Shown in pieces: positions 9,817 to 36,799 of a stretch of 64,000 nucleotides of DNA (positions within the stretch are counted from its first letter, which is position 1; the number at the start of each line of letters is the position of its first letter). The stretch is from Vicinamibacterales bacterium. GTDB lineage: Bacteria > Acidobacteriota > Vicinamibacteria > Vicinamibacterales > JAMQPK01. The notes under the pieces were generated by a model that made no database searches, had not been told where the DNA came from, and saw nothing but the letters and a program-made list of their open reading frames with translations. The translations under genes and the position numbers were made by a program. The stretch spans positions 1,451,855-1,515,854 of the forward strand of contig CAWHUA010000008.1 of assembly GCA_963832375.1 (NCBI GenBank), written 5' to 3'.

Positions 9817-9943
9817 CGGGTACAGACGTCTTGGCGGTTGTGCACAGACGGACCAGTGAGTTTTCGCAGGAATTCAGCGGTTTTCGGCGTGTTTCCGGTA
9901 CGTACCGCTTTGGCGTGGGTCTTGAAGTATCGGAGGCCGTCAG

Positions 9944-10703: not shown

Positions 10704-10733
10704 GATAGCGCCTCGAGCGACGGATGTTGACGG

Positions 10734-10757
10734 TTCGCCCGCACGCATGCGGGCGAA
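10734..10757 (+). terminator. Strong GC hairpin after the first regulator gene
   Basis: TTCGCCCGCA-cgca-TGCGGGCGAA: a perfect 10-bp stem, 31 nt after the stop at 10703. No U-tract. Confidence 0.5.
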
Positions 10758-10911
10758 GCGAGACGGGAATGGTGTGCCTCGTGGGGGCCGCGCGCCTCTT
10801 CTGATTGGCAACCGCGCAGCGGGGGGAGATGCCTGACCGCCCCCGATTGGCCGCGCGGCCCCTGTAAGTCAAGGGGCGAAGCTGTGTCCGGGCAACTGCA
10901 AGAAGTCCCAG

Positions 10912-11724
10912 ATGATATCGGAAACACCTATCTCTCCTGATTCCTTCGACCAGCCGATCCGGATCGTGCTCGTGGGCAACGAGCGCGTGACGCGGGCGGG
11001 CCTCCGTCTGCTCATCGACAGCCAGCCGGGCCTCCTCGTCGTCGCCGAAAAGGAGTGCACCGGCGATCTGGTCGCTCTGCTGGCCACGGCCGAGCCGCAG
11101 ATCGCGATCATCGATCTGGACGGCACCAGCAGTGTGGAGTTCATTCCCAACGTCCGCGAGGTGGGCCTGTTGCGCACGCGCATCATCGTGCTCACCAGCA
11201 CGCCCGAGTCCGCGGCCTGCGCGAGCGCGGTGCAGCGCGGCGCGCTGGGGATCGTCTCGAAGCAGCAGGCGCCGGAGATTCTCATCAAGGCGATCGAGCG
11301 GGTGCACGCCGGCGAGGTCTGGCTGAACCGCGCGCGGATCGCGGGCGTGCTCGGCAGCCTGCGCGCGTCGGCGTCGGCGACGGTCGCCGAGCGCCGGATC
11401 GCGCGGCCGGACAATCTGCTGCCGCGAGAGCGTCAAATCATCACGCTCGTCGGCCAGGGATTCCGCAACAACGAGATCGCGATGACGATTTTCGTGAGCG
11501 AGGCGACCGTCCGGAACTGTCTGGGATCGATCTTCAAGAAGCTTGGCGTCTCGAATCGCGTGCACTTGATGATCTTTGCGATCCAGGAAGGGTTCGTGAA
11601 TCTCCCAGCTTCCGGTATCACCCCCGTGCCCGCTTCTCCCCGTGATGTGCTTCGCCTCGCGACAAGCGCGGGGCGGGCGTTCGACGACGATCCGGCAGTG
11701 CCCATCAAAGGCCACGTCAAGTGA
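10912..11724 (+). CDS. NarL/FixJ (LuxR-HTH) type response regulator with an atypical receiver (paralogue of 9944..10703)
   Basis: 270 aa. The receiver reads IRIVLVGNERVTRAGL...QIAIIDLDG...IIVLTST...GIVSKQ, so Asp, Thr and Lys are present but the acidic pair is N-E. The HTH reads LPRERQIITLVGQGFRNNEIAMTIFVSEATVRNCLGSIFKKL. Confidence 0.8.
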   Translation: MISETPISPDSFDQPIRIVLVGNERVTRAGLRLLIDSQPGLLVVAEKECTGDLVALLATAEPQIAIIDLDGTSSVEFIPNVREVGLLRTRIIVLTSTPESAACASAVQRGALGIVSKQQAPEILIKAIERVHAGEVWLNRARIAGVLGSLRASASATVAERRIARPDNLLPRERQIITLVGQGFRNNEIAMTIFVSEATVRNCLGSIFKKLGVSNRVHLMIFAIQEGFVNLPASGITPVPASPRDVLRLATSAGRAFDDDPAVPIKGHVK

Positions 11725-11735
11725 GGACTTCAGAT

Positions 11736-12969
11736 ATGACACCAGCACACGCGACACGGGCGTCATTCCGCATCCGGCACGTGCTGCTCGCCGGGATCGT
11801 GCTGGCCGCTGCGACAACGCCCGGGGCGGCACAGAGCATTGACCCTGGTGCAAGTGAGAATCGTCAAGTCGGGCCGCTCGGTCTCACTCCGACGGTGATC
11901 TGGCAGACAGAGTACGACGACAACATCTTCCATACTGCCGCTCGCCCCATTTCGGACATCGTGTCCACCATCGGTGGAAGGACCGAGCTGCGAGGACAGT
12001 TGCGGCGCATCGGCCTGAACGGTAGCGGTTCGGCAGACTGGGTCCATTACACCAGGGTCGGCAGCGAACGAGGCGCCAATGTTGGCAGCGCGATCAGGAT
12101 GGACCTGCTGTTCAACCGCGTTGTTCCGTACCTGAGCGGCTCGTACAGCAATTCGCGACAGCGCACCAATCTGGAAATCGATACGCGCCCTCGAATGCAG
12201 CAGTCAACAGTTGGTGCCGGCACGGTTCTACGCCTCGGCAGCAAAACGGGGCTCGACTTCAGCGCCAAACGCGCAATGGTGGCGTACCAGCAGGGCGCCA
12301 TGGACCAGGGTGTCCCGGTGGCAGACGCGCTCAACAGGACGTCTGAGCACGCGAGCGCGTCGCTGAAGCAGCACGTGACGCCATTGACGCACCTGGCGAT
12401 TGCCGCCGAACTGTCTCGCGAGACATTCGACGTGTCCTCGCAGCGAGACGCAGACAGCGTCCGTCTCTCGGCGAGCTACGAGTCTGAGGGCCGCCTCAAC
12501 GGACGTGTCAGTGGCGGGATCAGAATCCTCAAGCCCCACGATTTCAGCCTGCCGGAATCGCGCGGGTATTTCGTCGCGGTCGGCACCAGCCTGACTCTCC
12601 TCGATCGTCTGCAGATCGGCCTGGTTGCGGACCGTGATATCGCGCCTTCGATCAAGTCGGCGATCGCCTACTACGAGTGACTACAGCTTTGGTGGCTCGC
12701 TCAGTTACGCGATGCGCCGTTCGCTCCGGTTGACTGCCCTGGCGGGCCGACGTGTCGCGAACTACGAAGATGGGATCAGCGCGGCACCGCCACCCCCCGG
12801 TCAAGGCGGAGTGGACGTCCAGACGTCATACGGCTCGGGTGTCAACTATCGGCTCGGAGACTCAATGGCGATCGACGTCTCAGGCACGTATACCGAACGA
12901 AGCTCGCCCGTGCGGTCGCGGCGGTTTGACGGAATGAGCATCAAAGCGGGAGTCAGTCATGTTTTCTAG
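11736..12969 (+). pseudogene. Putative outer-membrane beta-barrel protein of EPS loci (EpsL-like), interrupted by one apparent +1 frameshift
   Basis: Signal peptide MTPAHATRASFRIRHVLLAGIVLAAATTPGAAQS, then alternating beta-strand-like sequence. ORF 11721..12680 ends ...SAIAYYE* and continues in the next frame as DYSFGGSLSYAM... to the C-terminal ...GVSHVF (aromatic OMP beta-signal). The junction is at about 12675-12679. Length is 1234 nt, i.e. 1233+1. Confidence 0.55.
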
Positions 12970-13801
12970 AAGCGTGTCCGGCGCGTTCATCTCGATGGTC
13001 CTGATCCTCAGTGGCAGTCACACGCTGCCACTCTCCGCGCAAGCGCCGCAAATCGACTACGTGCTCGGCGCGCAGGACGTCTTCAAGATCACCGTCTGGG
13101 GGCAAGGCGGCGTCTCCGATCGGTTCACCGTCGAAGGCGACGGCATGTTCACGTTCCCGATTCTGGGACGTGTCACAGTCGGGGGACTGACGGTACGGCA
13201 ACTTCAAGACGAGCTCACGAAACGGTTGCGGGACGGCTATTTCAACGATCCACGGGTCAGCGTCGTCATGGAGGAATACCGCAGCCAACACGTGTTCATC
13301 GTCGGCGAAGTCAAGACTCCCGGAACCTATCCCATCTCCGGCCCGATGACGCTGATCGAGGCGCTCGCGCTGGCCGGCTCGACCACGAACAACGCCGGGA
13401 GCGTCGCGCTCATCCGCCGTCGCACCAACGGCGAGACGAGCAGCAATCCCGTAACTCAAGTCAGCGACGGCATCACGGAGATTCGGGTCGATCTGACGGC
13501 GTTTCAACAGGGCGAACTGTCGAACAATCCGGTGTTGCGGGATGGTGACACGATCGCCGTTCTGCGCGTCGCGCCGATTTACGTGTTCGGCCATGTCGGA
13601 CGGCCAGGCGAATACACGGTGGGCAAAGAAGCCACCGTTCGGCAGGTCCTCTCGCTGGCCGGTGGTGTCTCCCAACGGGGTGCGGCGGGCCGCATCAAGA
13701 TTGTTCGTCAGACGGGCGGGCGCGAGCAGGAAATCAAGGCGGAGTTGGACGACCGTGTCAAGCCTGGTGACACGATCGTCGTTCCCGAAAGGTATTTCTA
13801 A
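12959..13801 (+). CDS. Polysaccharide export protein (Wza/GumB/EpsE-like OPX: Poly_export + SLBB domains)
   Basis: 280 aa with a signal peptide. Motifs: YVLGAQDVFKITVWGQ...FTVEGDGMFTFPILGRVTVGGLTVRQLQDELTKRL..GYFNDPRVSVVMEEYRSQHVFIVGEVKTPGTY; C-terminal DGDTIVVPE. Confidence 0.85.
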   Translation: MFSRSVSGAFISMVLILSGSHTLPLSAQAPQIDYVLGAQDVFKITVWGQGGVSDRFTVEGDGMFTFPILGRVTVGGLTVRQLQDELTKRLRDGYFNDPRVSVVMEEYRSQHVFIVGEVKTPGTYPISGPMTLIEALALAGSTTNNAGSVALIRRRTNGETSSNPVTQVSDGITEIRVDLTAFQQGELSNNPVLRDGDTIAVLRVAPIYVFGHVGRPGEYTVGKEATVRQVLSLAGGVSQRGAAGRIKIVRQTGGREQEIKAELDDRVKPGDTIVVPERYF

Positions 13802-16052
13802 TGTCCAGCACAGTGCAGTCAACTCAGGAGCCAGAGGTCCCCGCGTCGGTCTCCGGGCCGGACGAGTGGCACTTCCCCGACGTGATGTCGGTGCTCTACA
13901 AGCGGCGGTGGGTCGTCCTGTCCACCTTCGTACCTGCTCGCCTCCGCCAGCACCGCGTACACGTTTTTGCTCACCCCGATCTATGAAGCACACGCTCAGC
14001 TTCTCGTCGCGGAAAAACCGAATATCGTGACGTTTCAAGGGGTCGAGAACGAGCAGGGCGACGAGCGCAGCTATCTCGAGACGCAATACAGATTGCTGCG
14101 CAGCCGCTCGCTCGCACGGCGCGTCATCAGTGAATTGGGCCTGTGGAAGGCACCAACCGTGACGCCTGCCACGCAACCGTCCGGCGTCCCGGCCCTGCTC
14201 GGCCGCTGGAGGGAATGGATCGGGATGAGAACGGCTGGCCCCCAGGCGGGCTCCGGTCCCTCGTCTGCACCTAGCGAGGCGCCGGATCCTGGCGAAAGCG
14301 CCGCCGAGTCACGTGCGATCGATGGAATGCTGTCGCAGCTGAATGTCGAGCCGGTGCGGAACACGCGGATGATCGAGGTGACATACGAGTCTTCGGATCC
14401 GCAGCTCGCGGCCAAGGTCGTGAATACCCTCACGAACGTCTACATCAACCGGCACATCGAAGCGCGCTTTCAGGCGTCGAAACAGGCGTCGGCATGGCTC
14501 GCCGAACAACTGGCTGAACAGCGCCGCAAAGTGGAAGCCAGCGAGCTGGCCGTTCAGCAATACCGCGAGCGGGAGAACAGCCTGTCGCTCGATGCCGGCC
14601 AGAACATTGTCGTGCAACGGCTCAATTCCTTGAACTCGGCCGTGACCCAGGCCAAGACAGAGCTCATCGCTGCCGAGGCGCGCTATCGTCAGCTGTCCGC
14701 GGGTCACACCAACCTCGAAACGCTCGATTCATTTCCGCCCATTCGAGCCAACACGGTCGTCCAGCAGATCAGGGCACGACTGGCGGATCTCCAGCGCGAT
14801 CGGGCGCTGCTCGCCGGCAACCTCGGCGCGAAGCACCCAGACATGGTCCGACTCGACACGGCGATCGCGGGGACTGAACGGGAGCTGACCACCGAGATTG
14901 CCAACACGGTCGAATCCGTTCGCCAGGAGTACCTGGCGGCGCTCGCACGTGAAAAGCAGCTGACCGCCGCGCTGAACTCGCAGAAAGCCAGTGCGCTTGC
15001 GCTGAATCGCCAGGGCATCGAGTATGGTGTGCTGCTCAGGGAGGTCGAAAGCAACCGCGAGATCTATCAAAGCCTGCTCCAGCGCGCCAATCAAACCGCG
15101 GTCTCGAGCGAGCTGAAAGGCAGCAACATCGAGATTGTGGATGCTGCCGAGGTCCCGCAGCGCCCGATCAGGCCCAGCACGCGCTCGAACATCATTGTTG
15201 GCTTCTTGCTGAGTGCCCTTGCAGCTCTGGCGATGGCGTTCGTTCTGGAGGCCTTCGACAGCCGGATCCAAACGCCATCCGATGTCAGGAAGATGTTGGG
15301 TCTCCCGTTCCTCGGCATGCTCCCCTACGTGTCGAGCCGCTCGCTGAAGGGACATTCACTCGTACTCAGCCGTGGTGTCCCTGCTGCCTATGCGGAAGCC
15401 TGCCGGTCGCTGCGAACCAACGTGCTCGAGACGGCGCGCACCAAGGGCACGCGTTCGCTCCTGGTCACGAGCGCGTCACCGGGCGACGGCAAGAGCGCCG
15501 TTGCCGTCAACCTGGCGGTCGCGCTCGGGAAGGGCGGAAGCCGCGTCGTGGTCATCGATGCGGACATGCGACGTCCGACGTTGCATCAATTGCTCCAGTC
15601 CGAGCAGCGTCCAGGCCTGTCAGAGGTATTGGTTGGCATCCGCAAGCCGAGCGAGACGATCGTGACGACGAAGTGGCAGAACGTCTGGCTGCTCCCGAGC
15701 GGATCGAGCCTGTCGAATCCATCCGAGTTGTTGGGGTCGCGGCGCTTCCAGGAATTTCTCGAGAAGCTCTCCGAGTCCTTTGACTGGGTCATTATCGACT
15801 CGCCGCCGGTCATGGCCGTCACCGACTCGGCGGTCATCGCCCGCCTGGCCGGTGGGGTCCTGTTCGTCGTCAACGCGCAGCGTACGCGGCGGCGCGTGGC
15901 GCAGGCCGCTCTCGATCGGCTCGAGACCGCCGGCGGCACATTCGTGGGAGCGGTGCTCAACGCCATCGAAGTCGGGCACGACTTCTACTTCAACTCCCAG
16001 GTCCTACCTCCCCTTCTACGAGGCCAACGTCTCGACGAAGCGAAGCGCCTGA
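13801..16052 (+). pseudogene. Wzc/GumC-like polysaccharide co-polymerase fused to a BY-type tyrosine kinase, with apparent +1 frameshifts near both ends
   Basis: The N-terminus (13801.., ...VMSVLYKRRWVVLSTF) continues in the next frame as YLLASASTAYTFLLTPIYEAHAQLLV.. (Wzz motif, coiled-coil region). Kinase motifs: Walker A TSASPGDGKS, A' VVVIDADMRRP, B WVIIDSPPV. As it stands, the frame reads straight into Wzm (997-aa ORF). A +1 shift at about 15995-16010 gives the tail ..SYLPFYEANVSTKRSA* with a stop at 16050-16052. Length is 2252 nt, i.e. 2250+2. Confidence 0.7.
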
Positions 16053-16129
16053 ACATGACTCGGCCTCTCACACCCGGCGCCCACGCCCCGCTCTGCCTAC
16101 CATCCGGCCCACCAGCCGCGCCTGCAAGG

Positions 16130-16960
16130 ATGTCGGAGAGCTGGACCCGCGTGATCCGCCCGAGACACGGTCTGACCGGTCTCGACACCGGCGAGTTATG
16201 GCAGTACCGGGAGCTGTTGGTGTTCTTCGTCTGGCGAAACATTCTGGTACGCTACAAGCAAACCACTATCGGTGTCGCATGGGCTGTCGTTCAGCCTGTC
16301 CTCACGATGGTCGTCTTCACCGTGATCTTTGGCAGGCTCGCGCAACTCCCCAGCGCGGGAGTCCCGTACGTCGTGCTGACATGCGCAGCCGTCATACCCT
16401 GGCAATTTTTTGCCAACGGTTTGTCGGCTGGAAGCAACTCCATCGTGGCAGCGGGGAATATCGTCCGGAAAGTGTACTTCCCACGCATCTTCATTCCGCT
16501 GAGTGATTGCCTGAGCGGCGGCCTCGACTTGAGCATTTCGTTGGGACTGCTTCTCGGCTTGATGGTGTACTACGACATTGCATTGACCTGGAGCCTGCTG
16601 CTGCTCCCGTTGTTTGCTCTCGCAGCCCTGCTCACTGCACTCGGTGCCAGTCTGTGGCTGTGTGCGTTGCACGTCAAATACCGGGACATCAAGTACGTGG
16701 TTCCGTTCCTGATTCAGGTCGGGCTCTACGTCAGCCCGGTCGGCTTCATGACGGCTGTCGTGCCCGAACAATGGCGCTTCTGGTATCACCTGAATCCACT
16801 CGCCGGCGTCATCGACGGGTTCCGCTGGGCCATCCTCGGACCGGCCTTCACACCTGACTGGTCCAGCCTTGCCCTCAGTGGCATGGTGACGTCCGGCCTG
16901 TTGGTGACTGGCCTCTTGTACTTCCGACGAACCGAACGCACGTTCGCTGACCTCATCTGA
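16130..16960 (+). CDS. wzm: ABC-2 type polysaccharide exporter permease
   Basis: Start at MSESWTRV (ATG 16130); the alternative is ATG 16055, right after the hypothetical Wzc stop. Motifs: ELWQYRELLVFFVWRNILVRYKQTTIGVAWAVVQP and six predicted TM segments. About 276 aa, typical for Wzm/TagG/KpsM. Confidence 0.8.
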   Translation: MSESWTRVIRPRHGLTGLDTGELWQYRELLVFFVWRNILVRYKQTTIGVAWAVVQPVLTMVVFTVIFGRLAQLPSAGVPYVVLTCAAVIPWQFFANGLSAGSNSIVAAGNIVRKVYFPRIFIPLSDCLSGGLDLSISLGLLLGLMVYYDIALTWSLLLLPLFALAALLTALGASLWLCALHVKYRDIKYVVPFLIQVGLYVSPVGFMTAVVPEQWRFWYHLNPLAGVIDGFRWAILGPAFTPDWSSLALSGMVTSGLLVTGLLYFRRTERTFADLI

Positions 16961-18235
16961 ATGTCTCAGACACCCGCAATTGCCATTCGTGGCCTCGGCA
17001 AGCGATACCAACTGGGTGAGACGGTTTCTTCCAACACCCTGCGCGATGCTCTCACGGCCGGCGCCAGACGACTCGTCACGCGCGCTCGCGGGACGAGCTC
17101 ACGCCCGACTGACTTCTGGGCGTTGAAGGATGTCTCGTTCGAAGTGGCGCAAGGCGAGGTCGTTGGAATCATTGGCCATAACGGAGCGGGCAAAAGCACC
17201 CTCCTGAAGATCCTGAGCGGCATCACGGAGCCTACCGAAGGAGAAATTCGGGTACGGGGCCGTATCGGCGCACTCCTTGAAGTGGGCACGGGATTCCATC
17301 AGGAACTCTCAGGGCGTGAGAACATCTTCATGAACGGGGCTATCCTGGGCATGACGCAGGCGGATATTCGTCGCAAGTTCGACGAGATCGTGGCGTTCGC
17401 AGGGGTTGAACAGTTCCTTGACACGCCGGTAAAACGCTACTCGTCCGGCATGCTGTTGAGGCTCGGCTTCGCCGTCGCGGCACACCTGGAGCCGGAAATT
17501 CTCGTCATTGACGAAGTGCTCGCGGTCGGGGACGCCGAATTTCAGCGCAAGTGCTTAGGGAAAATCGAAGACGTGTCACAGTCGGGCAGAACGATCCTGT
17601 TCGTGTCGCACAACATGGCCGCGATTGAAGCGTTGTGCGCGAGGGCATTCTGCCTGAACAAGGGACGCGTCGCCTGCCACGGTCCGGTCACCGAAGTGAT
17701 ATCGAACTACCTCGCCCAGGACCCCCACCTCTCGACCAACGGGCAGCCGACGCAAGACACCTCAGGCCGGTTTTCCTTGCGGCTCGAATCGAGCAATGCC
17801 CTGCGGCCAGGCCTGTTCCGAACCGGCGATGACATTTCGATGTGGGTGACTCTCACGTCTGAACCAGAGCCACGGTCAGACCTCGAATTGGTGGTCTCTC
17901 TCCTCTCAAGTGCCAATGAGCGCATCATGACACTTGCCAATTCATACCAGGCAGCGCGCCTGATGCGTACTACTGATAACGCCGCACAATGCGTTATCAG
18001 GAACTGCCGGCTGTCGGCCGGCACGTATCGCGTCCTTCTGAAGGTATTCGACCATCACAAGAACGTGATTGCCAGGCTCGACAAACTGCGCATCACGATC
18101 GTTGAATCGGACTGCTACGGTACCGGCAAGGTCATGCCGCCCAAATTCGGACGCATCGTGCCCGAATGCGAGTGGCGCTACCATTCGATCCCGGCTCCCG
18201 TACACATGCAGCCCGATTCTGCCGCAACAGTGTAG
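16961..18235 (+). CDS. wzt: ABC polysaccharide exporter ATPase with a C-terminal glycan-terminus-binding-type extension
   Basis: Walker A GHNGAGKST, signature YSSGMLLRLGFA, Walker B ILVIDEVLAVGD, H-loop FVSHN. An extra ~170-aa beta-rich C-terminal domain is present, as in Wzt proteins. The ATG directly abuts the wzm stop. Confidence 0.85.
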   Translation: MSQTPAIAIRGLGKRYQLGETVSSNTLRDALTAGARRLVTRARGTSSRPTDFWALKDVSFEVAQGEVVGIIGHNGAGKSTLLKILSGITEPTEGEIRVRGRIGALLEVGTGFHQELSGRENIFMNGAILGMTQADIRRKFDEIVAFAGVEQFLDTPVKRYSSGMLLRLGFAVAAHLEPEILVIDEVLAVGDAEFQRKCLGKIEDVSQSGRTILFVSHNMAAIEALCARAFCLNKGRVACHGPVTEVISNYLAQDPHLSTNGQPTQDTSGRFSLRLESSNALRPGLFRTGDDISMWVTLTSEPEPRSDLELVVSLLSSANERIMTLANSYQAARLMRTTDNAAQCVIRNCRLSAGTYRVLLKVFDHHKNVIARLDKLRITIVESDCYGTGKVMPPKFGRIVPECEWRYHSIPAPVHMQPDSAATV

Positions 18236-18265
18236 CCGGACTCCACCGATCGCCTTCCATTTGTC

Positions 18266-19228
18266 ATGACGTCGCCGCTGGTCAGCATCATCATCCCGTG
18301 CTACAACGCAGCGCCATGGGTTGGCAGGGCCATTGAAAGTGCGCTCCGACAACACCATGCCGCGACCGAGGTCATCGTCATCGACGACGGCTCGACAGAC
18401 GGGAGTCTCGGAGCGATTCAGCGGTTCGCTGGCGCGTTGCGATGGGACAGTGGTCCGCATCAAGGAGGAGGAGCCGCCCGCAACAGAGGGCTGGAACTCG
18501 CGCGGGGAGAATATGTTCAGTTTCTCGATGCCGATGATGAGCTCCTGCCGCAATGTATTGCCAGTAAGCTCGCAGCGGCGATGCAGGATCCCGATGTCTG
18601 CCCGTGCTCTGACTGGATCCGTGAAGGCTGCGACCACACCAGGTCCCATGAAGGCCCACGCCTGGAATCGCCAGATCCGGTCATTTCGGTGCTCAACGGG
18701 TCGATGGCCGTCAGCTCTCCGCTGCATCGCACGCGTGATCTCCGTCTGGTGAACGGCTTTTGTCCGACGCTTCCTTGTTGCCAGGAGCGAGACCTGCATC
18801 TCAGACTGGCCAGTGCGGGCGTGACATTCGCTCGAATCGGCGAACCCCTCTTTGTCGTTTACCGGCACTCTGGAAGCGTGAGTGACAACTACACGAGAGT
18901 GCTCCTTCAACGAGCAGACCTGCTCTCTCGTACAGCCGATCGCCTGCGTCTTTGCGGACATCTCACGAGCGAGCGCCGGCATGCCTTCGCCCGCGCTATC
19001 GCTCTCGATGCACGGCGTCTCTTTCACCGTGGGATGACCGCAGAGGCGAGACGTCACTGGCAAGCCGCTGCACGCCTTGATGTCGAAGGATTGCGTACCG
19101 CGTACAACAACACCTCCATGCGTCGTCTCTCGAGAATGGCAGGGCCAGAAATCACCGAACACACGCTGGCCCTTGTTCGAACCGCCTTTCGGTCGTTGTC
19201 CAGTCGACTCCATCAGCCCAGACGGTGA
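18266..19228 (+). CDS. Glycosyltransferase family 2
   Basis: VSIIIPCYNAAPWVGRAIESALRQ...VIVIDDGSTDGS and QFLDADDEL (DxD). Confidence 0.8.
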   Translation: MTSPLVSIIIPCYNAAPWVGRAIESALRQHHAATEVIVIDDGSTDGSLGAIQRFAGALRWDSGPHQGGGAARNRGLELARGEYVQFLDADDELLPQCIASKLAAAMQDPDVCPCSDWIREGCDHTRSHEGPRLESPDPVISVLNGSMAVSSPLHRTRDLRLVNGFCPTLPCCQERDLHLRLASAGVTFARIGEPLFVVYRHSGSVSDNYTRVLLQRADLLSRTADRLRLCGHLTSERRHAFARAIALDARRLFHRGMTAEARRHWQAAARLDVEGLRTAYNNTSMRRLSRMAGPEITEHTLALVRTAFRSLSSRLHQPRR

Positions 19229-20445
19229 ACGTCATCTACGTCACGGTTTCCGAGACACTGAGCTCAGTCGTCGAGTCGCAGTTGCTGCTGCCCGCGTCTC
19301 TGGGTCGCGCCACTGGCTCGGTCACTTGGCTGGCATTCACACCCCTGGGCCAGCTGATTCGTCCGCAATTGCGCCGCAAGGTCGTGGAGTTGAAGCGGAG
19401 GGCCGAGCGCGAGTTTGGCGTTCGCTTACACATCGTGCCGACCGCCCCCGCCCGTTACGCGACCACCCGGATGGCGCAGTGGTGGGCTCGACTCCAAATG
19501 GCCCGATTCCTCGGACGAGCGACCCCCAACATCGTTCACGCTCGAGGCAGCCTTGCGACCATCATGGTGCTGGAAGCACGCCGCCATTTGAACGCCGCCT
19601 TCCGGACGGTATTCGACTGTCGCGGTGACGCACCGGCCGAAAATGTAGCAGAGAGCGGGTCCGATCTTGCAGCGCAGGACCTGTGGTCTGTGGAGCAGCG
19701 CCGCATTTACGACCTGGCGCTTTCTCGCGAGGCCGCCGCGTGTGACGCCGACGAGATCATCGCTGTATCGACCAAAATGTTTCACGTGCTGACAACACGA
19801 CACAAGGTTCCGGCCTCGAAAGTGCGGTTGCAGCCGTGCAACGTCGATCTCACACAATTTGTCGAACCCGATCGTGACGACGCAAGACGGCGAATTGGCG
19901 TCACGAGTGAATTTGTCGTCGGCTATCTGGGATCACTCGAGTGGTATCAATTGGCGGACCATATGCTCAGGGTGTTCCGGCTGATTCAGACAGTCCGTTC
20001 CAACGCGCTTTTCGTTGCCATCACCAATCACCCTGATCGCATGCGTTCGGCGCTGGTCGGCGCGGGCATTCACGAATCTGCGTTCCGAGTGCTTTGTGTA
20101 CACCGGCGTGACGTGCCCGGAATACTGCCCGCATTGGATGTCGGACTGCTGCTCCGCCGCTCTGACGCACTCAATGCGGTGGCGTGCCCGGTCAAATTTG
20201 CGGAGTACCTCGCATCTGGCGTGCCGGTGGTCATCACACCCGGCGTTGGTGACTGCTCCGACATCGTTGCGACGGAAACACTTGGTGCCTGCGTCTCGCT
20301 GGAACGTGATGACGCCGAGCTGCTCGGGGCCCTCGCTCCTGTCCTTCAGACGACGCAGGGTGAGGCGGCCGCGTTGGCGAGGCGATGTCGTCAATATGCA
20401 GCGGAACACCTTTCGTGGCAGTCATATCTGCGGATCACGGCCTGA
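19225..20445 (+). CDS. GT-B fold glycosyltransferase (GT4-like)
   Basis: 406 aa. The GTG start overlaps the previous stop (GTGA). The C-terminal half reads ...VACPVKFAEYLASGVPVVITPGVGD. The family call is weaker than for its neighbours. Confidence 0.55.
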   Translation: MNVIYVTVSETLSSVVESQLLLPASLGRATGSVTWLAFTPLGQLIRPQLRRKVVELKRRAEREFGVRLHIVPTAPARYATTRMAQWWARLQMARFLGRATPNIVHARGSLATIMVLEARRHLNAAFRTVFDCRGDAPAENVAESGSDLAAQDLWSVEQRRIYDLALSREAAACDADEIIAVSTKMFHVLTTRHKVPASKVRLQPCNVDLTQFVEPDRDDARRRIGVTSEFVVGYLGSLEWYQLADHMLRVFRLIQTVRSNALFVAITNHPDRMRSALVGAGIHESAFRVLCVHRRDVPGILPALDVGLLLRRSDALNAVACPVKFAEYLASGVPVVITPGVGDCSDIVATETLGACVSLERDDAELLGALAPVLQTTQGEAAALARRCRQYAAEHLSWQSYLRITA

Positions 20446-20483
20446 GCCATGCCTCCCTCAACAGCCGGTCGCGGCTGCCCTTC

Positions 20484-21602
20484 ATGGTGAAGGTCGCAGC
20501 CTATACGTCGCCGCTGAGGATGGATCCAACGCCGACCGGCGTCGGCCAGCATATCCATGGGATGTTCTCGGCCTTGCAGCAGCGCGACGACGTCCTCTTC
20601 AGCCTCATTTCGCCCCGCGGAACCAGGCACGACGCAGACGGTCTCATTGCGTCGCATGCCCGTTCGCGGCTCGTGCCGCTGCCCCTTCCCGACCGCCTGC
20701 TGCGCATGACGACCACCTGGGCTTCGCTCGTGAACGTCGACCCCTGGCTACAGGATGAGGACTGGGTGTACGCCCCGGTTGAGCAGCCGGTCACGACGCG
20801 CCGGCGGCTCGCCGTGACGGTTCACGATCTCTACCCGTTCGAACCGACAGTGGCGGGCATCCCAGACAAGAGAACGGCGGGCATCAGCTGGCGCCGAAGG
20901 CTGAAGCGCATTCTTGAACGCGCGAACGTAATTGCGACTGTATCGGATTTTACGCGGTCGCGAATGCTCGACCTCTTCGACGTTCGTCATCCCGAGCGAA
21001 TTGTCGTGGTGGGAAACGGCGGGTCTGAGGGCTTCGACGGCACGGTACGGCCTGATGATGAGCGCGTTCTCGCACGTTATGGTCTCAAACCTGGTTTCAT
21101 CCTTTTCCCGGCGAGCCTTACTTGGAAGAAAGGCGGAGACCTGCTGTTGCGGGTCGCCATGGAGGCACGCGCTCAGGGGATGTCGCTGGAGTTTGCCGTT
21201 ACCGGCCGGCGGCACGACGCCGACCTGCTGACCCGCATGCGGCAGCTCGACGATGGTGCGGGCCTTCCGGTTACGCTGCTCGGATATGTCGCAAAGCATG
21301 AGCTCGCGGCAATGTACCGACGTGCAGCGGCGACGCTCGTCCTTTCACGTTACGAAGGATTCGGAATTCCCGTCGTTGAGGCCCTGGCCAGCGGCTGCCC
21401 CCTTTTCATCAGCAAGCACGCGGCACTCATGGAGGTGGCGGCCGGGCAGGGCATCCTCGTCGACGACGATCCCGGTTGCATCCTGACGGCGCTCGTCAAC
21501 CACCGGCCTCCGGCCGCGTCGTGCAGTCGACCGAACTGGGCGGCCTCCAGCCATCACACGTGGGCCAACAGCGCAGCCAAGCTGGTGAGTGCTCTTCAGT
21601 GA
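20484..21602 (+). CDS. Glycosyltransferase family 4
   Basis: Start at MVKVAAYTSPL (internal Met of ORF 20385..21602, after the upstream stop at 20445). EX7E region: SRYEGFGIPVVEALASGCPLFIS. Confidence 0.75.
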   Translation: MVKVAAYTSPLRMDPTPTGVGQHIHGMFSALQQRDDVLFSLISPRGTRHDADGLIASHARSRLVPLPLPDRLLRMTTTWASLVNVDPWLQDEDWVYAPVEQPVTTRRRLAVTVHDLYPFEPTVAGIPDKRTAGISWRRRLKRILERANVIATVSDFTRSRMLDLFDVRHPERIVVVGNGGSEGFDGTVRPDDERVLARYGLKPGFILFPASLTWKKGGDLLLRVAMEARAQGMSLEFAVTGRRHDADLLTRMRQLDDGAGLPVTLLGYVAKHELAAMYRRAAATLVLSRYEGFGIPVVEALASGCPLFISKHAALMEVAAGQGILVDDDPGCILTALVNHRPPAASCSRPNWAASSHHTWANSAAKLVSALQ

Positions 21603-21631
21603 CAAGCGGGCGTGATCTTCATGCGGTTGCG

Positions 21632-22777
21632 ATGCTCCAGACGCAACGGCCTATCCGAGTGTTGCACGTCATCAATGGACTCTTTTCAGGCGGTGGACAC
21701 CGCTCCACCGCAATCCTGGCGGATGAATCTCGACGATTCCCCTCTCTCCATACCTGCCTCTGCACGCTGGGACACCAGGGAACGCCCTCGTCGGCGGCTG
21801 CCGGACAGCTCACGATTCCATACAACGGGCGCTACAACCGTGCTTCGGTCCTCTTCACGACCGCACGACGGCTACGAAAGCTGCTCGACTCGCAGAATAT
21901 CGACATCGTGCACACGCATGGTGTCGACGCTGATCTGATCGGGGCGCTCGCGACGGTTCGTCAATCGACGCGGCACGTCAGTCACCTCAGAATCATGCCG
22001 CCGAGTACTCGACACGCCTCCTGGCGAAGAGCCATACGACGCCGACTATTTCAGATGGTGACTCGTTGGAAGGGCACGTGGTTCATCGCGGTATCCGACG
22101 CCGTGCGTCGGGAGATGTGCGCGTACTACGACCTGCCGGCGGATCGGGTGATCACCGTGAGGAACGGCATTGACGTGGACGACTTTGCTGACGAGAGCGG
22201 TTCGACACCGCGCTCGCCCCAGACCGGCAGCCGTGGAAGCTTCGTCATTGGAACGGCAGCACGGCTTGTGCCGGGGAAAGGCCTCGAAGGCCTGCTCGAC
22301 GCGATCGCCCAGCTTCACGCACAAGGCGTTCGCTGCGAACTCAGGGTGGCGGGCGATGGCAGCTTGCGGTCGCCGCTGGCGCACTTGAGTGAACGATTGA
22401 ATGTGGCCGCGTCGGTGACCTTCCTGGGGCACGTGCACGACATGCGGGACTTCTATCGACGGTTGGACATGTTTGTGCTCCCATCGTCTTCTGAGGGTCT
22501 GCCACTGTCTCTCCTTGAAGCCATGGCGGCAGGTGTCCCGGTTGTCGCAAGCCATGTGGGCGGTATTCCGGAGGTCATTGTCGACGGTGTCCATGGATTG
22601 CTCGTCGAGCCGGACAATCCGTCTGCGCTGATAGCGGCGATGAAGAGACTCGCGACCGATCCTGGCCTGCGTCATGAACTTGCGTGCGCTGCGGCGGCAC
22701 GCGTGGCGTCGGAGTTTACGGCTGCCCGCGTGGCTCGAGAGGTTACGCGTGTCTACGAGGCGATCCTGTCTCAATGA
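21632..22777 (+). CDS. Glycosyltransferase family 4
   Basis: Start at MLQTQRPIRVLHVINGLFSGGGH (ATG 21632). Motif: PSSSEGLPLSLLEAMAAGVPVVASHVGGIPEVI. Confidence 0.8.
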   Translation: MLQTQRPIRVLHVINGLFSGGGHRSTAILADESRRFPSLHTCLCTLGHQGTPSSAAAGQLTIPYNGRYNRASVLFTTARRLRKLLDSQNIDIVHTHGVDADLIGALATVRQSTRHVSHLRIMPPSTRHASWRRAIRRRLFQMVTRWKGTWFIAVSDAVRREMCAYYDLPADRVITVRNGIDVDDFADESGSTPRSPQTGSRGSFVIGTAARLVPGKGLEGLLDAIAQLHAQGVRCELRVAGDGSLRSPLAHLSERLNVAASVTFLGHVHDMRDFYRRLDMFVLPSSSEGLPLSLLEAMAAGVPVVASHVGGIPEVIVDGVHGLLVEPDNPSALIAAMKRLATDPGLRHELACAAAARVASEFTAARVAREVTRVYEAILSQ

Positions 22778-22784
22778 TCCCCAG

Positions 22785-23858
22785 ATGATGGTCTCCGCGC
22801 ATCACTCGCCTCAACGGCCTGAATCGGGTTGGCTTGATCCAGCCGAAACCAGGCACTTGGTGTCTGTGATCGTTCCGACCTACAACCGGCGGGCGGTCAT
22901 CCTGGACACGCTGGAGAGCGTCCGTTCTCAGTGCTACAGACCGATCGAGCTCATCGTCGTTGATGACGGCTCGACCGACGACACGGCGTCGCTGGTTCGA
23001 CCATGGCTGGAATCGCAGGACTCGAACGATTTCCGCGCCACATTTATCGCGCTTTCTCATCAGGGCGTCAGTGCCGCACGGAATGCCGGCCTCGTTCGCT
23101 CAAAGGGTCAGTTCATTCAGTTTCTGGACAGTGATGACGTCATGCATCCACGCGCGCTGACCGAGTGCGTGGCACAATTTCATTCTGACGACATCGATAC
23201 CGTCGTCTTTCGACATCGGATATTCCGCAGCATTGACGATATCCGGCACGAGCTCGCCACCGTTCCAAGTCCGAATCCATTCTCGCGCGATCCCGAAAGG
23301 CGTCCCTTCTTTACACGGATGGGCTGGGATCTATGGATGGCCCTCTATCGCAGGTCGCTGGTGGTCAAGGCCGGGCCGTTTCAGGCGGACATTTTGAAGG
23401 GTGAGACATATCGCAGCACCGTTCGGCTGAAACTCTGCTCCACAGGACGGCACTACGTTCCCTTGACGCTCATGTACTACCGTCGCGGGACCACGAATGC
23501 GCTGACGTCCGTGGGGCCGGTGCTGGGTTTACCGCAAGCGGCCAAGGTCGTTCAGGCGGTGCACGACTCCCTATCCGAGTTCCATGTTGACGACCCGCTG
23601 GAATGGAGGGCGCTCGCGCGACGGGCGCTGATTGCGTACGTCAGATGTGTTCAGTACGGTGTCACGACCGGTCGCCACGACTCGCTGCGTATCGCGCGAC
23701 GTGCGGCTGCACGCTGGAGCCCTCTCGCAGGCGTGCCGCTGAGTCTTCCCGAATGGGTCCTCAGCTCAATCTTCCGCTTTCTGACGGCTGTCAGGAATGC
23801 AGCGCGGCGCCGGCAGGCGTGGGTTGTCACGAGAGTATCCAGTCGATCATGTTCCTGA
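22785..23858 (+). CDS. Glycosyltransferase family 2
   Basis: VSVIVPTYNRRAVILDTLESVRSQCYRPIELIVVDDGSTDDT and QFLDSDDVM. Confidence 0.8.
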   Translation: MMVSAHHSPQRPESGWLDPAETRHLVSVIVPTYNRRAVILDTLESVRSQCYRPIELIVVDDGSTDDTASLVRPWLESQDSNDFRATFIALSHQGVSAARNAGLVRSKGQFIQFLDSDDVMHPRALTECVAQFHSDDIDTVVFRHRIFRSIDDIRHELATVPSPNPFSRDPERRPFFTRMGWDLWMALYRRSLVVKAGPFQADILKGETYRSTVRLKLCSTGRHYVPLTLMYYRRGTTNALTSVGPVLGLPQAAKVVQAVHDSLSEFHVDDPLEWRALARRALIAYVRCVQYGVTTGRHDSLRIARRAAARWSPLAGVPLSLPEWVLSSIFRFLTAVRNAARRRQAWVVTRVSSRSCS

Positions 23859-25237
23859 CACTTCTGGCGCTGACCGGGCTCGTTCTAGCCACTGGAACGG
23901 TCGTGGCCTACCGCAGGACGGCGGATATTCTGCACCCGATGCTGTTTCTTGGGCCGCTCTTCTTGTACAGCACGGTCCTGGAACCGTGGTTGGTTCGTGA
24001 TGGTCTGGGCCCATACTTCCCGCATCCAGAAGATCTGAATCTTGTCCTCCTGCTTCACCTCCTGGCCATCGCCGCATTGGTGATTGGAATTCTCAGCAGG
24101 CCCGGGCGGCGGGTTCAGGCAAGTGCGCCGCTGGGGGAGAGCTCCCGCGCCAGGCTCAGTCTCGTGGCCGCTGCACTGGCGATTGTCGGACTGACGGCGT
24201 ATGTCTGGGGCATTGTGAACGCCGGCGGATTCTTCGCCGCATTCTCTCAGGTGAAAGGTGGCGGCAGTACCGGTTTCGGATACATCAACGAAGCGATGAA
24301 CCTCGGATTGGCGGCCGCCGCGATGTCGTCAATCATTCAATATCGACGCGGATGGACGGGTTGGACGCTGCTGCTGCTCGTCTCGGGCCTTTTGCCGAAC
24401 CTGATCCAGGGCACGTTCGGCGGTCGCCGTGGCCCCCTCTTCCTGGGGCTGGCCACGCTCCTGATCGCGTGGGTCGTGACCCGACGCCGCACTCCCAGCC
24501 TGGCCACGGCAGGCGTTGCGCTTGCCGCAATTCTGACAGCCATGGTGTTTGTCGCATCCCAACGTCAGCATCTTCATCTGGGTGCCTCGGAGCAGGCAAT
24601 CAGATGGGACGACTTCCTGAACAGCTTGATGCAGGAGAAAGTGGACGAAGGCAACAACTTCGTGTACGGCGCGGGCTTCGTGCTGACGACGCAGAAAGCT
24701 GACCGTTTCACCTGGGGACGCGAACTCATCATCAACTTGTTCGTCCGACCGGTGCCTCGGCAGCTCTGGCCGACCAAGTACCAAGATACCGGGGCGATTT
24801 GGATCACTTCCAATCACCCTGGGATTGGACACCTCACCGAAAGTGAGTGGCGGTCGGCCGTCGGCTGGGTTCCTCTGCAAGGTTCTTCCGCAATGTGCAT
24901 CTCAGACCTGTTCGGAGAGTTCGGATGGGGTGCCATCGCAGTGATGTATCTCATCGGCCGGGGGTTCGCTGAGCTCCGATTCCGCAGGCAGACCCGGCAG
25001 GGTGTGTGGAACCTGCTCTACCTCGAAGCATTGATGCTCTCTATTTACCTGGCGACTCAAAGCTTCTCTGCTTTTTACCATCGATATCTCATCCTTGCGT
25101 GTCCAACGCTCATTGTGTGGCAGGTGTTTGTCGGTCAACACTCGGTGTCCACGCGCACGGCGCTGGCGCAGCGATATCGTCGTTCGGCCGCCAACGGCGG
25201 ACTCAATCGGGAAAGGCTGGGTAAGGCTCTTGGATAA
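23849..25237 (+). CDS. Polytopic membrane protein, O-antigen polymerase (Wzy) / ligase-like
   Basis: Start at MFLTLLALTGLVLA (ATG 23849, 10-nt overlap with the upstream gene). About 10-12 hydrophobic segments and a large loop with ...FVRPVPRQLWPTKY.., reminiscent of repeat-unit polymerases. I cannot separate Wzy from WaaL-type by eye. Confidence 0.5.
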   Translation: MFLTLLALTGLVLATGTVVAYRRTADILHPMLFLGPLFLYSTVLEPWLVRDGLGPYFPHPEDLNLVLLLHLLAIAALVIGILSRPGRRVQASAPLGESSRARLSLVAAALAIVGLTAYVWGIVNAGGFFAAFSQVKGGGSTGFGYINEAMNLGLAAAAMSSIIQYRRGWTGWTLLLLVSGLLPNLIQGTFGGRRGPLFLGLATLLIAWVVTRRRTPSLATAGVALAAILTAMVFVASQRQHLHLGASEQAIRWDDFLNSLMQEKVDEGNNFVYGAGFVLTTQKADRFTWGRELIINLFVRPVPRQLWPTKYQDTGAIWITSNHPGIGHLTESEWRSAVGWVPLQGSSAMCISDLFGEFGWGAIAVMYLIGRGFAELRFRRQTRQGVWNLLYLEALMLSIYLATQSFSAFYHRYLILACPTLIVWQVFVGQHSVSTRTALAQRYRRSAANGGLNRERLGKALG

Positions 25238-25244: not shown

Positions 25245-26510
25245 GTGAGCGGTTGCGGGTCGCGCAGTCCCCGTGTCCTGGTTGCGCAGATCGGCTCCCG
25301 CCGCCGCTATGCTGTTCCGCGTGGTCTCGCACACGCGGGCTGCCTTCATTCGCTGATCACCGATGCGTGCGGTGCCGTGGAACCGTGGCGATACCTGCAA
25401 TCGGTCTTGCCACCGAGCCTGCGACCGCAGTCACTGCAGGCCGTGTTCGAGCGACGCATAGAAGACGTCTCGGCCGACCGGATTAAAGGCTGCCTGCCAT
25501 TCGTCCTCGCCACAACCATCGGTCACCATCGGGCTCGCACGCGGGAATCGAAAGCGAGTTTCTGGGCGCGCCAGAATGAGCAATTTGGAAGGGCCGTCGC
25601 CAGCGCCGACTGGGGCACCGCCGACACCGTGTACGCATTCAACGGCGCCGCACTTGAGATATTCGAACGCGCTCATCGAAGTGGTCTTCGCTGCATCCTC
25701 GATCAGACATCCGCGCCCTGGCGCCACAATACGCGGCTTTTGCTCCAGGAACAGGAGAAATGGCCGCGCTGGGAGGAGCATCCGGCCGACGTGGACTCGA
25801 CCGGGCAGATGATTCGGCGAGAAGAGGCAGAGTGGAAGCTCGCTGACCAGATCATTTGCGGCTCACCCTTTGTCGTTGAAGCTATTCGCAATGCCAGCGG
25901 CCCTGTTGAGAAATGCCGTGTCGTGACCTACCCCATCCCGGAACACTCAGCCCGGCGGGAACCGAACCCGATTTGCAGTGCGCGCGCGCTTCGCGTCTTG
26001 TTTGTCGGCACCCTGCAGCTCCGCAAGGGCATTCAGTACGTCTTTGAATCGGCGCGGCATCTTGCCGGCGAACGTTTCGAGTTCCGCGCAGTGGGACCGA
26101 GTGCTCTCACGCAGTCTGCGGAACGCGCCCTCGCGACCTTCGTCGATGTGCGTGGGCAGGTGGGGCGCAACGATGTCTGGCGACACTATCAGTGGGCGGA
26201 TGTGTTCTTCCTGCCAACGTTGTCGGAAGGCAGCGCCAACGTCTGCTGGGAAGCGTTGTCAACGGGAACTTACGTCCTCACGTCGAGCGCTGCGGGCCTT
26301 ACGGAAGCTGATGCGGACATCTGTCCCGGTGATCCCGAGGTGATGGTCGATCGCTTGAGGCGTCTGCGCGATCTCACCGCGCGACCAAAGGGCCGGCATG
26401 GCCGTTTCGCGAGGGTCCGTTCCGTGAAGGACTATGGGGTCGACTTACGGCAGGTGCTGTGCAGGTCGTCACGACTGGCATCCTCACCGCATCTCACAGA
26501 CATACCATGA
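25245..26510 (+). CDS. GT-B fold glycosyltransferase (GT4-like)
   Basis: Probable GTG start at 25245, after the upstream stop at 25237. Motifs: RVLFVGTLQLRKGIQY... and LPTLSEGSANVCWEALSTGTYVLTS (EX7E). Confidence 0.55.
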   Translation: MSGCGSRSPRVLVAQIGSRRRYAVPRGLAHAGCLHSLITDACGAVEPWRYLQSVLPPSLRPQSLQAVFERRIEDVSADRIKGCLPFVLATTIGHHRARTRESKASFWARQNEQFGRAVASADWGTADTVYAFNGAALEIFERAHRSGLRCILDQTSAPWRHNTRLLLQEQEKWPRWEEHPADVDSTGQMIRREEAEWKLADQIICGSPFVVEAIRNASGPVEKCRVVTYPIPEHSARREPNPICSARALRVLFVGTLQLRKGIQYVFESARHLAGERFEFRAVGPSALTQSAERALATFVDVRGQVGRNDVWRHYQWADVFFLPTLSEGSANVCWEALSTGTYVLTSSAAGLTEADADICPGDPEVMVDRLRRLRDLTARPKGRHGRFARVRSVKDYGVDLRQVLCRSSRLASSPHLTDIP

Positions 26511-36782: not shown

Positions 36783-36799
36783 CCCCCTTTTTCTCACTC

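Follow-up and report, generated by a model that had tools for sequence, protein, structure and literature searches.

A polysaccharide locus of a soil bacterium of the Vicinamibacterales (Acidobacteriota) combines the ATP-binding cassette (ABC) exporter Wzm/Wzt with a polytopic protein of the Wzy superfamily, here called WzyL, and the pairing of the two recurs in at least seven bacterial phyla, i.e. it is conserved and not a chance mix. The locus lies in a stretch of 64,000 nucleotides (the window; GenBank assembly GCA_963832375.1, contig CAWHUA010000008.1, positions 1,451,855 to 1,515,854 of the forward strand) and forms one co-directional string of genes, ~11.7-40.9 kb, which encodes an outer-membrane β-barrel, a short outer-membrane polysaccharide export protein (OPX), a tyrosine kinase of polysaccharide co-polymerase class 2a (PCP-2a), Wzm, Wzt, 14 glycosyltransferases (GTs), WzyL and a WecA-type initiating transferase. 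Polysaccharide loci are routinely typed as Wzx/Wzy-, ABC- or synthase-dependent by marker genes, and this one appears to represent a so far undescribed variation on the textbook routes. We tentatively favour a single pathway, in which Wzm/Wzt would replace the flippase Wzx and WzyL would act on the exported glycan linked to undecaprenyl pyrophosphate (Und-PP), with the role of a polymerase likelier than that of a ligase.

In such a pathway, each step of which we infer from gene content, the WecA-type enzyme would start the glycan on undecaprenyl phosphate (Und-P). Because it is the only initiator, the substrate would be Und-PP-linked, as a Wzy enzyme needs. The 14 cytoplasmic GTs, a methyltransferase, an oxidoreductase and an epimerase-like protein would then build a large, defined Und-PP-linked glycan, and Wzm/Wzt, with a glycan-binding domain of the Wzt_C type on Wzt, would carry it over the inner membrane instead of Wzx. 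At the periplasmic face WzyL would act on the Und-PP-linked glycan, most likely by joining exported blocks into a longer chain, and in Acidobacteriota the PCP-2a kinase, the short OPX and the β-barrel would export the product across periplasm and outer membrane. If this is correct, marker-based classification mis-assigns such loci, an ABC exporter is able to feed a periplasmic Wzy-type enzyme, and PCP-2a kinases are not confined to Wzx-dependent systems. A more far-reaching version, which we consider rather doubtful, would make Wzm/Wzt the dedicated flippase of a Wzy-dependent pathway, in which a dozen or more GTs would build large Und-PP-linked blocks, the ABC exporter with its glycan-binding domain would move them and a separate Wzy family would polymerise them; in Acidobacteriota and Myxococcales, the PCP-2a kinase, the short OPX and the barrel would then take over. 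If true, this would be a fourth assembly logic, distributed over at least seven phyla, that breaks the rule by which Wzy goes with Wzx and ABC export with cytoplasmic polymerisation.

Composition of the locus

Genes were called from the G+C content of third codon positions and the length of open reading frames (ORFs), and the ORFs were scanned against Pfam and NCBIfam. The G+C content of the window is ~63%, with a lower value of ~60% between 16 and 32 kb, and all genes between 10.1 and 40.9 kb are on the + strand. The genes of the locus are as follows.

11721-12969, +: outer-membrane β-barrel of the BBP2_2 family (PF10082, E 2.9e-7; TIGR03016, weak)
12959-13801, +: short OPX of 280 amino acids, class-3 or D1D2D2 type (Pfam Poly_export and two SLBB domains; EpsE model TIGR03028, 5e-46)
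13801-16052, +: PCP-2a with bacterial tyrosine (BY) kinase (Pfam Wzz, GNVR and AAA_31; TIGR01005, TIGR01007 and Wzc models)
16055-16960, +: Wzm, ABC-2 permease (PF01061, 2e-17; NF050109 Wzm/RfbD)
16961-18235, +: Wzt, ABC ATPase (PF00005; NF050108), with a C-terminal extension of ~170 amino acids
18266-23858, +: five glycosyltransferases, GT2a, GT4a, GT4b, GT4c and GT2b (Pfam), with maximal ORFs, in this order, at 18266-19228, 19225-20445, 20385-21602, 21476-22777 and 22674-23858
23849-25237, +: WzyL, polytopic protein of the Wzy/WaaL superfamily, 462 amino acids
25095-34573, +: eight glycosyltransferases, GT4d, GT2c, GT4e, GT4f, GT8, GT4g, GT4h and GT2d (Pfam, NCBIfam)
26459-27223, +: FkbM-family methyltransferase (Pfam)
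34608-36782, +: bi-domain ADH_zinc_N/GFO_IDH_MocA oxidoreductase (Pfam, NCBIfam)
36800-37795, +: glucuronyl C5-epimerase-like protein (Pfam, NCBIfam)
37806-39098, +: WcaI-like GT4 (Pfam, NCBIfam)
39095-40855, +: WecA-type polyprenyl-phosphate HexNAc-1-P transferase, 586 amino acids (PF00953, 3.7e-36; TIGR02380, 2.9e-40)
~9929-10703 and 10912-11724, +: two LuxR/GerE-type response regulators (Pfam GerE, Response_reg), directly upstream of the locus, the first with a frameshift near 10087-10116

The genes are tightly packed. The stop codon of the OPX gene overlaps the ATG of the PCP gene, wzm abuts wzt at 16960/16961, the GT2b gene overlaps the WzyL gene, and no terminator-like sites were seen between the locus genes. 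After repair of a frameshift described below, the wzm ATG follows 2 nt after the PCP stop codon TGA at 16050-16052 (4 nt from the first base of the stop). A first-pass annotation, made from the sequence alone, had named barrel, Wza-like, Wzc-like, Wzm, Wzt and Wzy-like parts of one co-directional string and a WecA-like transferase; the Pfam and NCBIfam matches place them all on the + strand, at or near the positions it had given, but the locus does not end at 25237, as it had assumed, and reaches at least 40.9 kb.

A hydropathy scan of all sizeable ORFs in the 64 kb revealed four polytopic proteins, namely Wzm, WzyL, WecA and a fragment of an MFS transporter at 55 kb. No ORF of the window matches Polysacc_synt, MurJ or MatE in the Pfam scans, so that the earlier observation of a locus with three polytopic proteins and no MOP-type (multidrug/oligosaccharidyl-lipid/polysaccharide) flippase or Wzx was correct. 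The WecA-type transferase has at least nine transmembrane (TM) segments and is the sole initiating enzyme, since no initiating enzyme of the Bac_transf/PHPT type was found in the Pfam scans of the window; its C-terminal ~250 residues have no family match. The PCP-2a protein has the Walker A (PGDGKS), Walker A' (VVVIDADMRRP) and Walker B (DWVIIDSPP) motifs of a kinase. Its domain matches and motifs agree with the layout of a PCP-2a, in which a periplasmic Wzz/GNVR region flanked by two TM segments is joined to a cytoplasmic P-loop kinase with a Tyr-rich tail.

Recurrence of WzyL with Wzm/Wzt and export genes

A genome scan with the WzyL alignment yielded 59 loci from many phyla, and the proteins of the window were mapped onto all loci fetched. 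The flanks were ~10 kb long; Wzm/Wzt counts refer to the 34 family loci whose upstream flank measures ≥9 kb, and counts of MOP flippases to 56 family loci. A conserved gene order recurs among 58 related loci, namely [WecA]-Wzm-Wzt-GT2a-GT4a-...-WzyL-GT4g-GT4h-GT2d-oxidoreductase-(C5-epimerase-like)-GT4i, with examples in Vicinamibacterales (L001, L008), Phycisphaera (L020), Tepidisphaeraceae (L030), Kiritimatiellia (L013), Lentisphaerota (L022), Verrucomicrobiota (L017), Bryobacterales (L037, L049) and Alphaproteobacteria (L032, L056). Overall, WzyL loci with this order span Acidobacteriota, Planctomycetota, Verrucomicrobiota/Kiritimatiellia, Lentisphaerota, Pseudomonadota (Alpha- and Gammaproteobacteria) and other phyla. 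Thus the comparison across relatives that the first-pass annotation had suggested found the architecture conserved well beyond the phylum, and in many phyla a Wzy-family gene is a conserved, syntenic part of Wzm/Wzt loci, with recurrent links to PCP-2a and OPX. The cluster is also present in the cultured strains Bythopirellula polymerisocia Pla144 and Syntrophobacter fumaroxidans MPOB, which makes the question testable.

Wzm is encoded in 13 of the 34 loci, in 12 of them together with Wzt. The end of Wzt always lies 4.1-8.2 kb before WzyL, near the 10-kb flank limit, and several other loci start with GT2a, the gene that normally follows Wzt. With the distance so close to this limit, Wzm/Wzt is probably present in a larger share of WzyL loci than 13/34. 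By a search for polytopic proteins, followed by Pfam and phmmer, a MOP flippase was detected near WzyL in two of the 56 family loci (L045 and L054), and a further locus (L058) contains one polytopic candidate of 473 amino acids with no family match. The same procedure found a MOP protein in all three marginal loci outside the family (L061-L063), an internal positive control; therefore the method is able to detect them.

Orthologues of GT2a, GT4a and GT4b come after Wzt in many related loci, while GT4g-GT4h-GT2d come after WzyL in most. The oxidoreductase is found downstream of WzyL in 15 of 34 loci with a full downstream flank (≥9 kb). Often accompanied by the glucuronyl-C5-epimerase-like gene (34608-37795 in the window for both), it travels with WzyL across phyla, which is a hint of a conserved, unusual sugar, possibly an epimerised uronic acid. 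WecA orthologues adjoin Wzm in L013 and L022 and are sited elsewhere in L031, L037 and L052.

The exporter itself is of an ordinary type. The window Wzm, 72% identical to the stand-alone Wzm genes of L001 and L008, is an ABC-2 permease adjoining an ATPase of the Wzt/TagH/RfbE type, the arrangement expected of Wzm/Wzt. The C-terminus of the window Wzt has no direct Pfam match, and a homologue search with this fragment returned nothing. It aligns over its full length with the Wzt of L008, whose C-terminus matches PF14524 (Wzt_C) at 1.4e-11, and PF14524 is matched by all ten syntenic Wzt orthologues tested, in seven cases above the gathering score. Judged by this alignment, the window Wzt appears to end in a divergent homologue of the Wzt_C carbohydrate-binding domain. 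As a converse control, a metagenome scan centred on the window Wzm gave 80 loci with Wzm proteins 51-58% identical to it, and WzyL was found in none of them, including the 25 with at least 9 kb downstream. This argues against a specialised Wzm clade, and only a small part of Wzm/Wzt loci are WzyL clusters. Among the 20 Wzm-centred loci with a long upstream flank, five have a PCP-2a-like gene, mostly on the opposite strand. In six unrelated metagenome contigs (L087, L097, L105, L106, L109 and L139), PCP-2a-like genes of 720-778 amino acids lie ~6 kb or less upstream of Wzm/Wzt, again mostly on the opposite strand, with Walker A in 4/6 and Tyr-rich tails in some. These observations suggest that, in environmental genomes, a PCP-2a gene beside Wzm/Wzt is less unusual than textbooks would have it.

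Besides the window, PCP and OPX are found near WzyL in L001, in L025 (Myxococcales) and in L041, L055 and L059 (other Acidobacteriota), with differing gene orders. In L001, the order is PCP, MsbA-like ABC protein, Wzm, Wzt; the additional gene (L001:926-2758) encodes an MsbA/PglK-like ABC half-transporter of 610 amino acids (ABC_tran, weak ABC_membrane) with no counterpart in the window, which could be a second flippase for lipid-linked glycans. In L041, one strand encodes a Wzy_C protein, an OPX (332 amino acids), a PCP-2a (748 amino acids), a GT4, WzyL, an acyltransferase, Wzm, an epimerase, Wzt, a methyltransferase and a GT2. Because L041, from another class of Acidobacteriota, holds the same parts in a different order, it argues for a functional coupling, and because it has a separate Wzy_C gene, as L059 likewise does, WzyL would not simply be the ligase.

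A comparison with the closest relatives, which are metagenome-assembled genomes (MAGs) of Vicinamibacterales, argues in addition against two unrelated loci that are merely adjacent. In the sister genome L004, the proteins encoded over 3.7-11.7 kb, regulators included, are 84-96% identical to those of the window, with 88-94% for the two response regulators, which are kept upstream of the barrel-OPX-PCP cassette in both L003 and L004. Identity falls to 47-65% for barrel, OPX and PCP, and beyond the PCP gene the content of L004 is unrelated (acetyltransferase, polytopic protein, deacetylase, GT4s, Bac_transf, PglD/DegT); L003 is similar. Neither locus has a MOP flippase or Wzm/Wzt within 10 kb, and the polytopic protein in these regions (L003:12314-21855 and L004:12222-21136) has 421-424 amino acids, 9-10 TM segments and no family match. 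The sequence comparison points to a serotype-like replacement of the locus. Since the breakpoint is at the start of the barrel gene, export cassette and biosynthetic genes appear to swap as one unit, as in capsule loci.

WzyL and the candidate assembly routes

WzyL belongs to a family that, by its sequences, is small and well conserved. A word-indexed search retrieved 65 homologues at E≤1e-3, a few of which, Sfum_3342 among them, carry the annotation 'oligosaccharide repeat unit polymerase' or 'O-antigen polymerase', and a profile search among 1.84 billion proteins retrieved 254 cluster representatives at E≤1e-30. A look-up of the identical sequence gave no entry for WzyL, and for Wzt only a 2-kb contig. 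The WzyL of the window has no Pfam match at E≤1, and thus none to Wzy_C or O-antigen_lig; with TIGR04370 it gives 5.6e-5 (22.3 bits, cut-off 40). In a set of 40 relatives, PF14296 (O-ag_pol_Wzy) is matched by four, at best with 3.8e-12, while Wzy_C is matched weakly by three (best 1.2e-3) and O-antigen_lig by one (0.014). The HMM check of 23849-25237 proposed by the first-pass annotation therefore has two sides: the nearest models are Wzy polymerases, but for the window protein itself every curated model stays under its threshold.

The alignment of 40 sequences has 24 invariant columns, with the motifs GGRRGP and RPxPxQxWPxKY and the invariant residues R194, R239, R300, K310 and R412. None of the invariant residues is a His; H29 is the only well-conserved one, and none in the loop 239-350 is conserved at ≥90%. 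The AlphaFold2 model (mean pLDDT 89.9) has ~11 TM helices and a loop of ~110 residues (239-350) between TM8 and TM9, predicted by the positive-inside rule to be extracytoplasmic. This is the layout of a Wzy-type protein, i.e. polytopic with a large, predicted periplasmic loop that has conserved basic residues. The only meaningful match of the model in the Protein Data Bank (PDB) is the ligase WaaL (7tpg; E 0.026, TM-score 0.37-0.41, weak), whereas ArnT and PglB are not matched, and a profile search of PDB sequences found no relative. An activity as GtrC-like GT-C enzyme on an Und-P-sugar made by GT2d is not supported, as GT2d is unlike GtrB/ArnC-type synthases. By sequence, WzyL thus appears to be a divergent member of the Wzy/WaaL superfamily, as the first reading of this gene had assumed, and is closer to polymerase models; sequence and fold alone do not separate polymerase from ligase.

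The locus resembles several known systems in part. With the Wzx/Wzy pathway for capsule and exopolysaccharide (EPS), e.g. Wza-Wzc-Wzy of Escherichia coli group 1 or EPS and biosurfactant polysaccharide (BPS) of Myxococcus, it shares a PCP-2a BY-kinase with a Tyr tail, an OPX, a polytopic protein of the Wzy superfamily, an Und-PP-linked start and many single-addition GTs. In contrast to this pathway, a MOP protein is absent from the window and from 54 of the 56 related loci, Wzm/Wzt follows directly after the PCP, and no Wzb phosphatase was seen in the locus. ABC-dependent O-polysaccharides with capping (E. coli O8/O9a; the common polysaccharide antigen (CPA) of Pseudomonas aeruginosa) are alike in the WecA start, the adjacent Wzm and Wzt, the Wzt_C-type domain and a methyltransferase. 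They differ in lacking a Wzy-type gene, PCP-2a and OPX, in using few multidomain or processive GTs instead of 14 single ones, and in their WaaL ligase, which is of the Wzy_C family and usually encoded elsewhere.

The export genes correspond to the composite translocon of short OPX and β-barrel described for EpsY/EpsX and WzaB/WzpB (PMC9601211, PMC9603273, PMC12819527) and known from Myxococcus, with an OPX of 280 amino acids and no D4 helix beside a BBP2_2 barrel and a PCP. An OPX of ≤280 amino acids with D1 and D2, no C-terminal helix and an adjacent barrel, by which such translocons are recognised (PMC9601211), are all found in the window, where a hydropathy scan detected no TM segment or C-terminal membrane helix in the OPX. 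In the survey of these couples, 14 of 453 were assigned to ABC pathways (PMC9601211), and none is described with a Wzy-type gene. ABC-dependent capsule pathways normally use a PCP and an OPX, KpsE and KpsD (PMC9601211). The premise of the first-pass annotation that Wzm/Wzt systems need neither Wzy nor a BY-kinase co-polymerase thus holds only in part: OPX together with an ABC exporter is by itself no oddity, but the combination of a PCP-2a kinase and a Wzy-type protein with Wzm/Wzt is unusual. As in KpsMT-KpsE-KpsD of group 2 capsules, an ABC exporter with PCP and OPX would span the whole envelope; unlike there, the PCP is a PCP-2a with kinase and not the PCP-3 KpsE, and synthesis would start by WecA on Und-P and not on a linker of lysophosphatidylglycerol and Kdo. 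A Kps-type capsule locus is ruled out by this start, by the negligible match of the window PCP to the KpsE model TIGR01010 (3.8e-4, 19.7 bits, cut-off 437) and by the lack of KpsS/KpsC, as no window ORF matches Capsule_synth in the Pfam scans.

A precedent for ABC-dependent flipping is provided by Wzk of Helicobacter pylori, which restores O16 in an E. coli wzx mutant, so that an ABC flippase feeds a Wzy-dependent O antigen (PMC2841628). Wzk and PglK of Campylobacter jejuni resemble the proposed system in that an ABC protein flips an Und-PP-linked glycan for an enzyme of the Wzy/WaaL superfamily. In contrast to Wzm/Wzt, they are half-transporters with fused transmembrane and nucleotide-binding domains, and H. 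pylori lacks Wzy, PCP and OPX. In literature searches, no paper was found on a Wzy gene conserved in Wzm/Wzt loci that lack Wzx.

The strongest competitor, a credible though unlikely one, is an ordinary ABC-dependent, O-antigen-like pathway with WecA start, completion and capping in the cytoplasm and export by Wzm/Wzt. WzyL would then be a ligase or transferase to lipid A-core, protein or another polymer, and OPX, PCP and barrel would carry the product or serve a separate polymer. Such a function agrees with WaaL as the only PDB match, with Wzt_C in the Wzt orthologues and the FkbM methyltransferase, as in capped O-polysaccharides, with the need of any ABC-exported Und-PP-glycan for a transferase that frees the lipid carrier, and with the lack of a nearby PCP or OPX in most WzyL loci of the PVC (Planctomycetota-Verrucomicrobiota-Chlamydiota) phyla. 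S-layer glycan and O-antigen ABC systems with a transferase of the WaaL/Wzy_C type are known. The polymerase is nevertheless preferred because of several features. The family is closer in sequence to the polymerase models TIGR04370 and PF14296, its members match PF14296 (3.8e-12) better than Wzy_C (1e-3), and no loop His is conserved at ≥90%. WzyL is tightly co-inherited with particular GT orthologues, as expected of a substrate-specific enzyme and not of a general ligase, and is recurrently linked to PCP-2a. A separate Wzy_C gene is present within the L041 and L059 loci, and a family as rare as this one (254 representatives) cannot be the general ligase of these phyla. Finally, the presence of 14 single GTs is more in keeping with a large defined unit than with a processive homopolymer.

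Several observations weigh against the single pathway with WzyL as polymerase. A Wzt with a cap-binding domain and an FkbM methyltransferase are typical of chains finished in the cytoplasm, and the precedent for ABC flipping before Wzy concerns a PglK/Wzk-type transporter and not Wzm/Wzt. Wzm proteins 51-58% identical to that of the window are common in loci without WzyL, and the transporter is thus not visibly specialised. WzyL of the window is under threshold for all curated models, and its sole structural match, a weak one, is a ligase. Within 10 kb, the majority of WzyL loci from groups other than Acidobacteriota and Myxococcales lack PCP and OPX, and there a ligase or transferase fits as well. 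The barrel and PCP genes are frameshifted, and a Wzx could be encoded outside the window.

A canonical Wzx/Wzy pathway with its Wzx elsewhere in the genome, next to a second glycan exported by Wzm/Wzt, so that one locus makes two glycans, appears improbable. The window covers 64 kb of a ~1.6-Mb contig, the 14 GTs form two conserved groups flanking WzyL that could build two products, L001 has the additional half-transporter between PCP and Wzm, and dual-chain loci are known in Gram-positive bacteria. However, wzx normally sits with wzy and the GTs, and a MOP protein is near WzyL in only 2/56 loci; furthermore, the window has a single initiating transferase, no Bac_transf/PHPT and no second transporter. 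The first-pass annotation had left three options, namely an ABC-dependent O-antigen-like pathway beside capsule-type export, flipping of units by Wzm/Wzt for Wzy, and an unlinked flippase. The genomic context leans to a single pathway, nearer to the second option, and the third is weakened by the 54 of 56 related loci with no MOP nearby.

Frameshifts and neighbouring genes

The ORF 13967-16960 (997 amino acids) contains GNVR, a kinase domain and ABC2_membrane in one frame and is deposited in this form (P0066). A genuine PCP-Wzm fusion is ruled out, since ABC2_membrane is present in none of the 119 PCP homologues listed, which have lengths of 693-829 amino acids, and since the +1 frame restores the PCP tail and a stop before the wzm ATG. 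The homologues end in '...DHYYNSRYYLPFYGDYLTDKRTA', with the tail pattern '...YLPFYGDY..KRTA', which matches the +1 frame of the window: the ORF frame reads HDFYFNSQ, whereas the +1 frame, entered by way of an additional G at 16000-16001, reads SYLPFYEANVSTKRSA up to the stop at 16050-16052. The N-terminus of the PCP (MSSTVQ...RRWVVLSTFV) is in another frame, upstream of a shift at ~13932-13936. So restored, the PCP has the normal, Tyr-containing tail of such a kinase, and the 997-residue ORF is an artefact of 1-nt insertions. The deposited 'PCP-Wzm fusion' should not be used as a new domain architecture. The barrel gene is likewise read as two ORFs, 11721-12680 and 12625-12969; with one frameshift repaired it runs to ~12969, and tblastn segments of its L003 homologue (410 amino acids) are collinear in frames 3 and 1 of the window.

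In total, five single-base frameshifts relative to the sister genomes were located within ~12 kb (~4460, 10087-10116, 12674-12682, 13932-13936 and 16000-16001), and none was detected between 16 and 41 kb. None of the sites is a long homopolymer, and a TAC trinucleotide adjoins several of them. Those at ~4460 and ~10100 hit two unrelated upstream genes, as judged by tblastn with sister-genome proteins, and the nearest genomes, with records named 'contig_N', are MAGs from long reads. For these two reasons, the frameshifts are probably long-read assembly indels rather than signs of pseudogenisation. That the mixed architecture is a relic, with barrel and PCP as pseudogenes of a decaying export cassette and only the ABC part functional, is very improbable: three frameshifts within 4.3 kb of barrel and PCP genes would fit, but the unrelated upstream genes are hit as well, the long-read origin favours assembly errors, the affected genes have no in-frame stop codons and are 47-68% identical over their full length to intact homologues, and L001 and L041 have intact versions of the same architecture. 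The frameshifts with the false fusion ORF, the correspondence of barrel and short OPX to a described translocon and the conserved cross-phylum cluster had escaped the first-pass annotation.

Further observations concern WzyL homologues in other genomes and the surroundings of the locus. WzyL homologues occur in the cyanobacterial MAGs L036, L039 and L047, and GT4h of the window (32515-33705) is similar along its whole length to HpsP, the hormogonium-polysaccharide transferase of cyanobacteria (1.6e-58, under the model cut-off). A contig binned as Candidatus Paceibacterota (L006, JBBDHZ010000205.1) encodes a WzyL 50% identical to that of the window, followed by GT4g-GT4h-GT2d, and is probably mis-binned from an acidobacterium. 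In the Verrucomicrobiia locus L046, an exosortase of the EpsH family (10505-11457) is encoded ~9 kb downstream of WzyL; a PEP-CTERM/exosortase link was rejected, as it has only weak sub-threshold GT matches and this one locus in its favour and the window has no exosortase. The flanks of the locus encode a GAF-GGDEF diguanylate cyclase (681-1748), a polysaccharide deacetylase (41787-42644) and a cadherin/Big_9 surface protein of 981 amino acids (45882-48827), which may be regulatory or matrix partners. An AMP-binding enzyme (52320-53726), the MFS transporter (55029-55742) and a Ser/Thr kinase (58460-60667) each match part of their domain model, and these gene calls are probably shortened by further indels.

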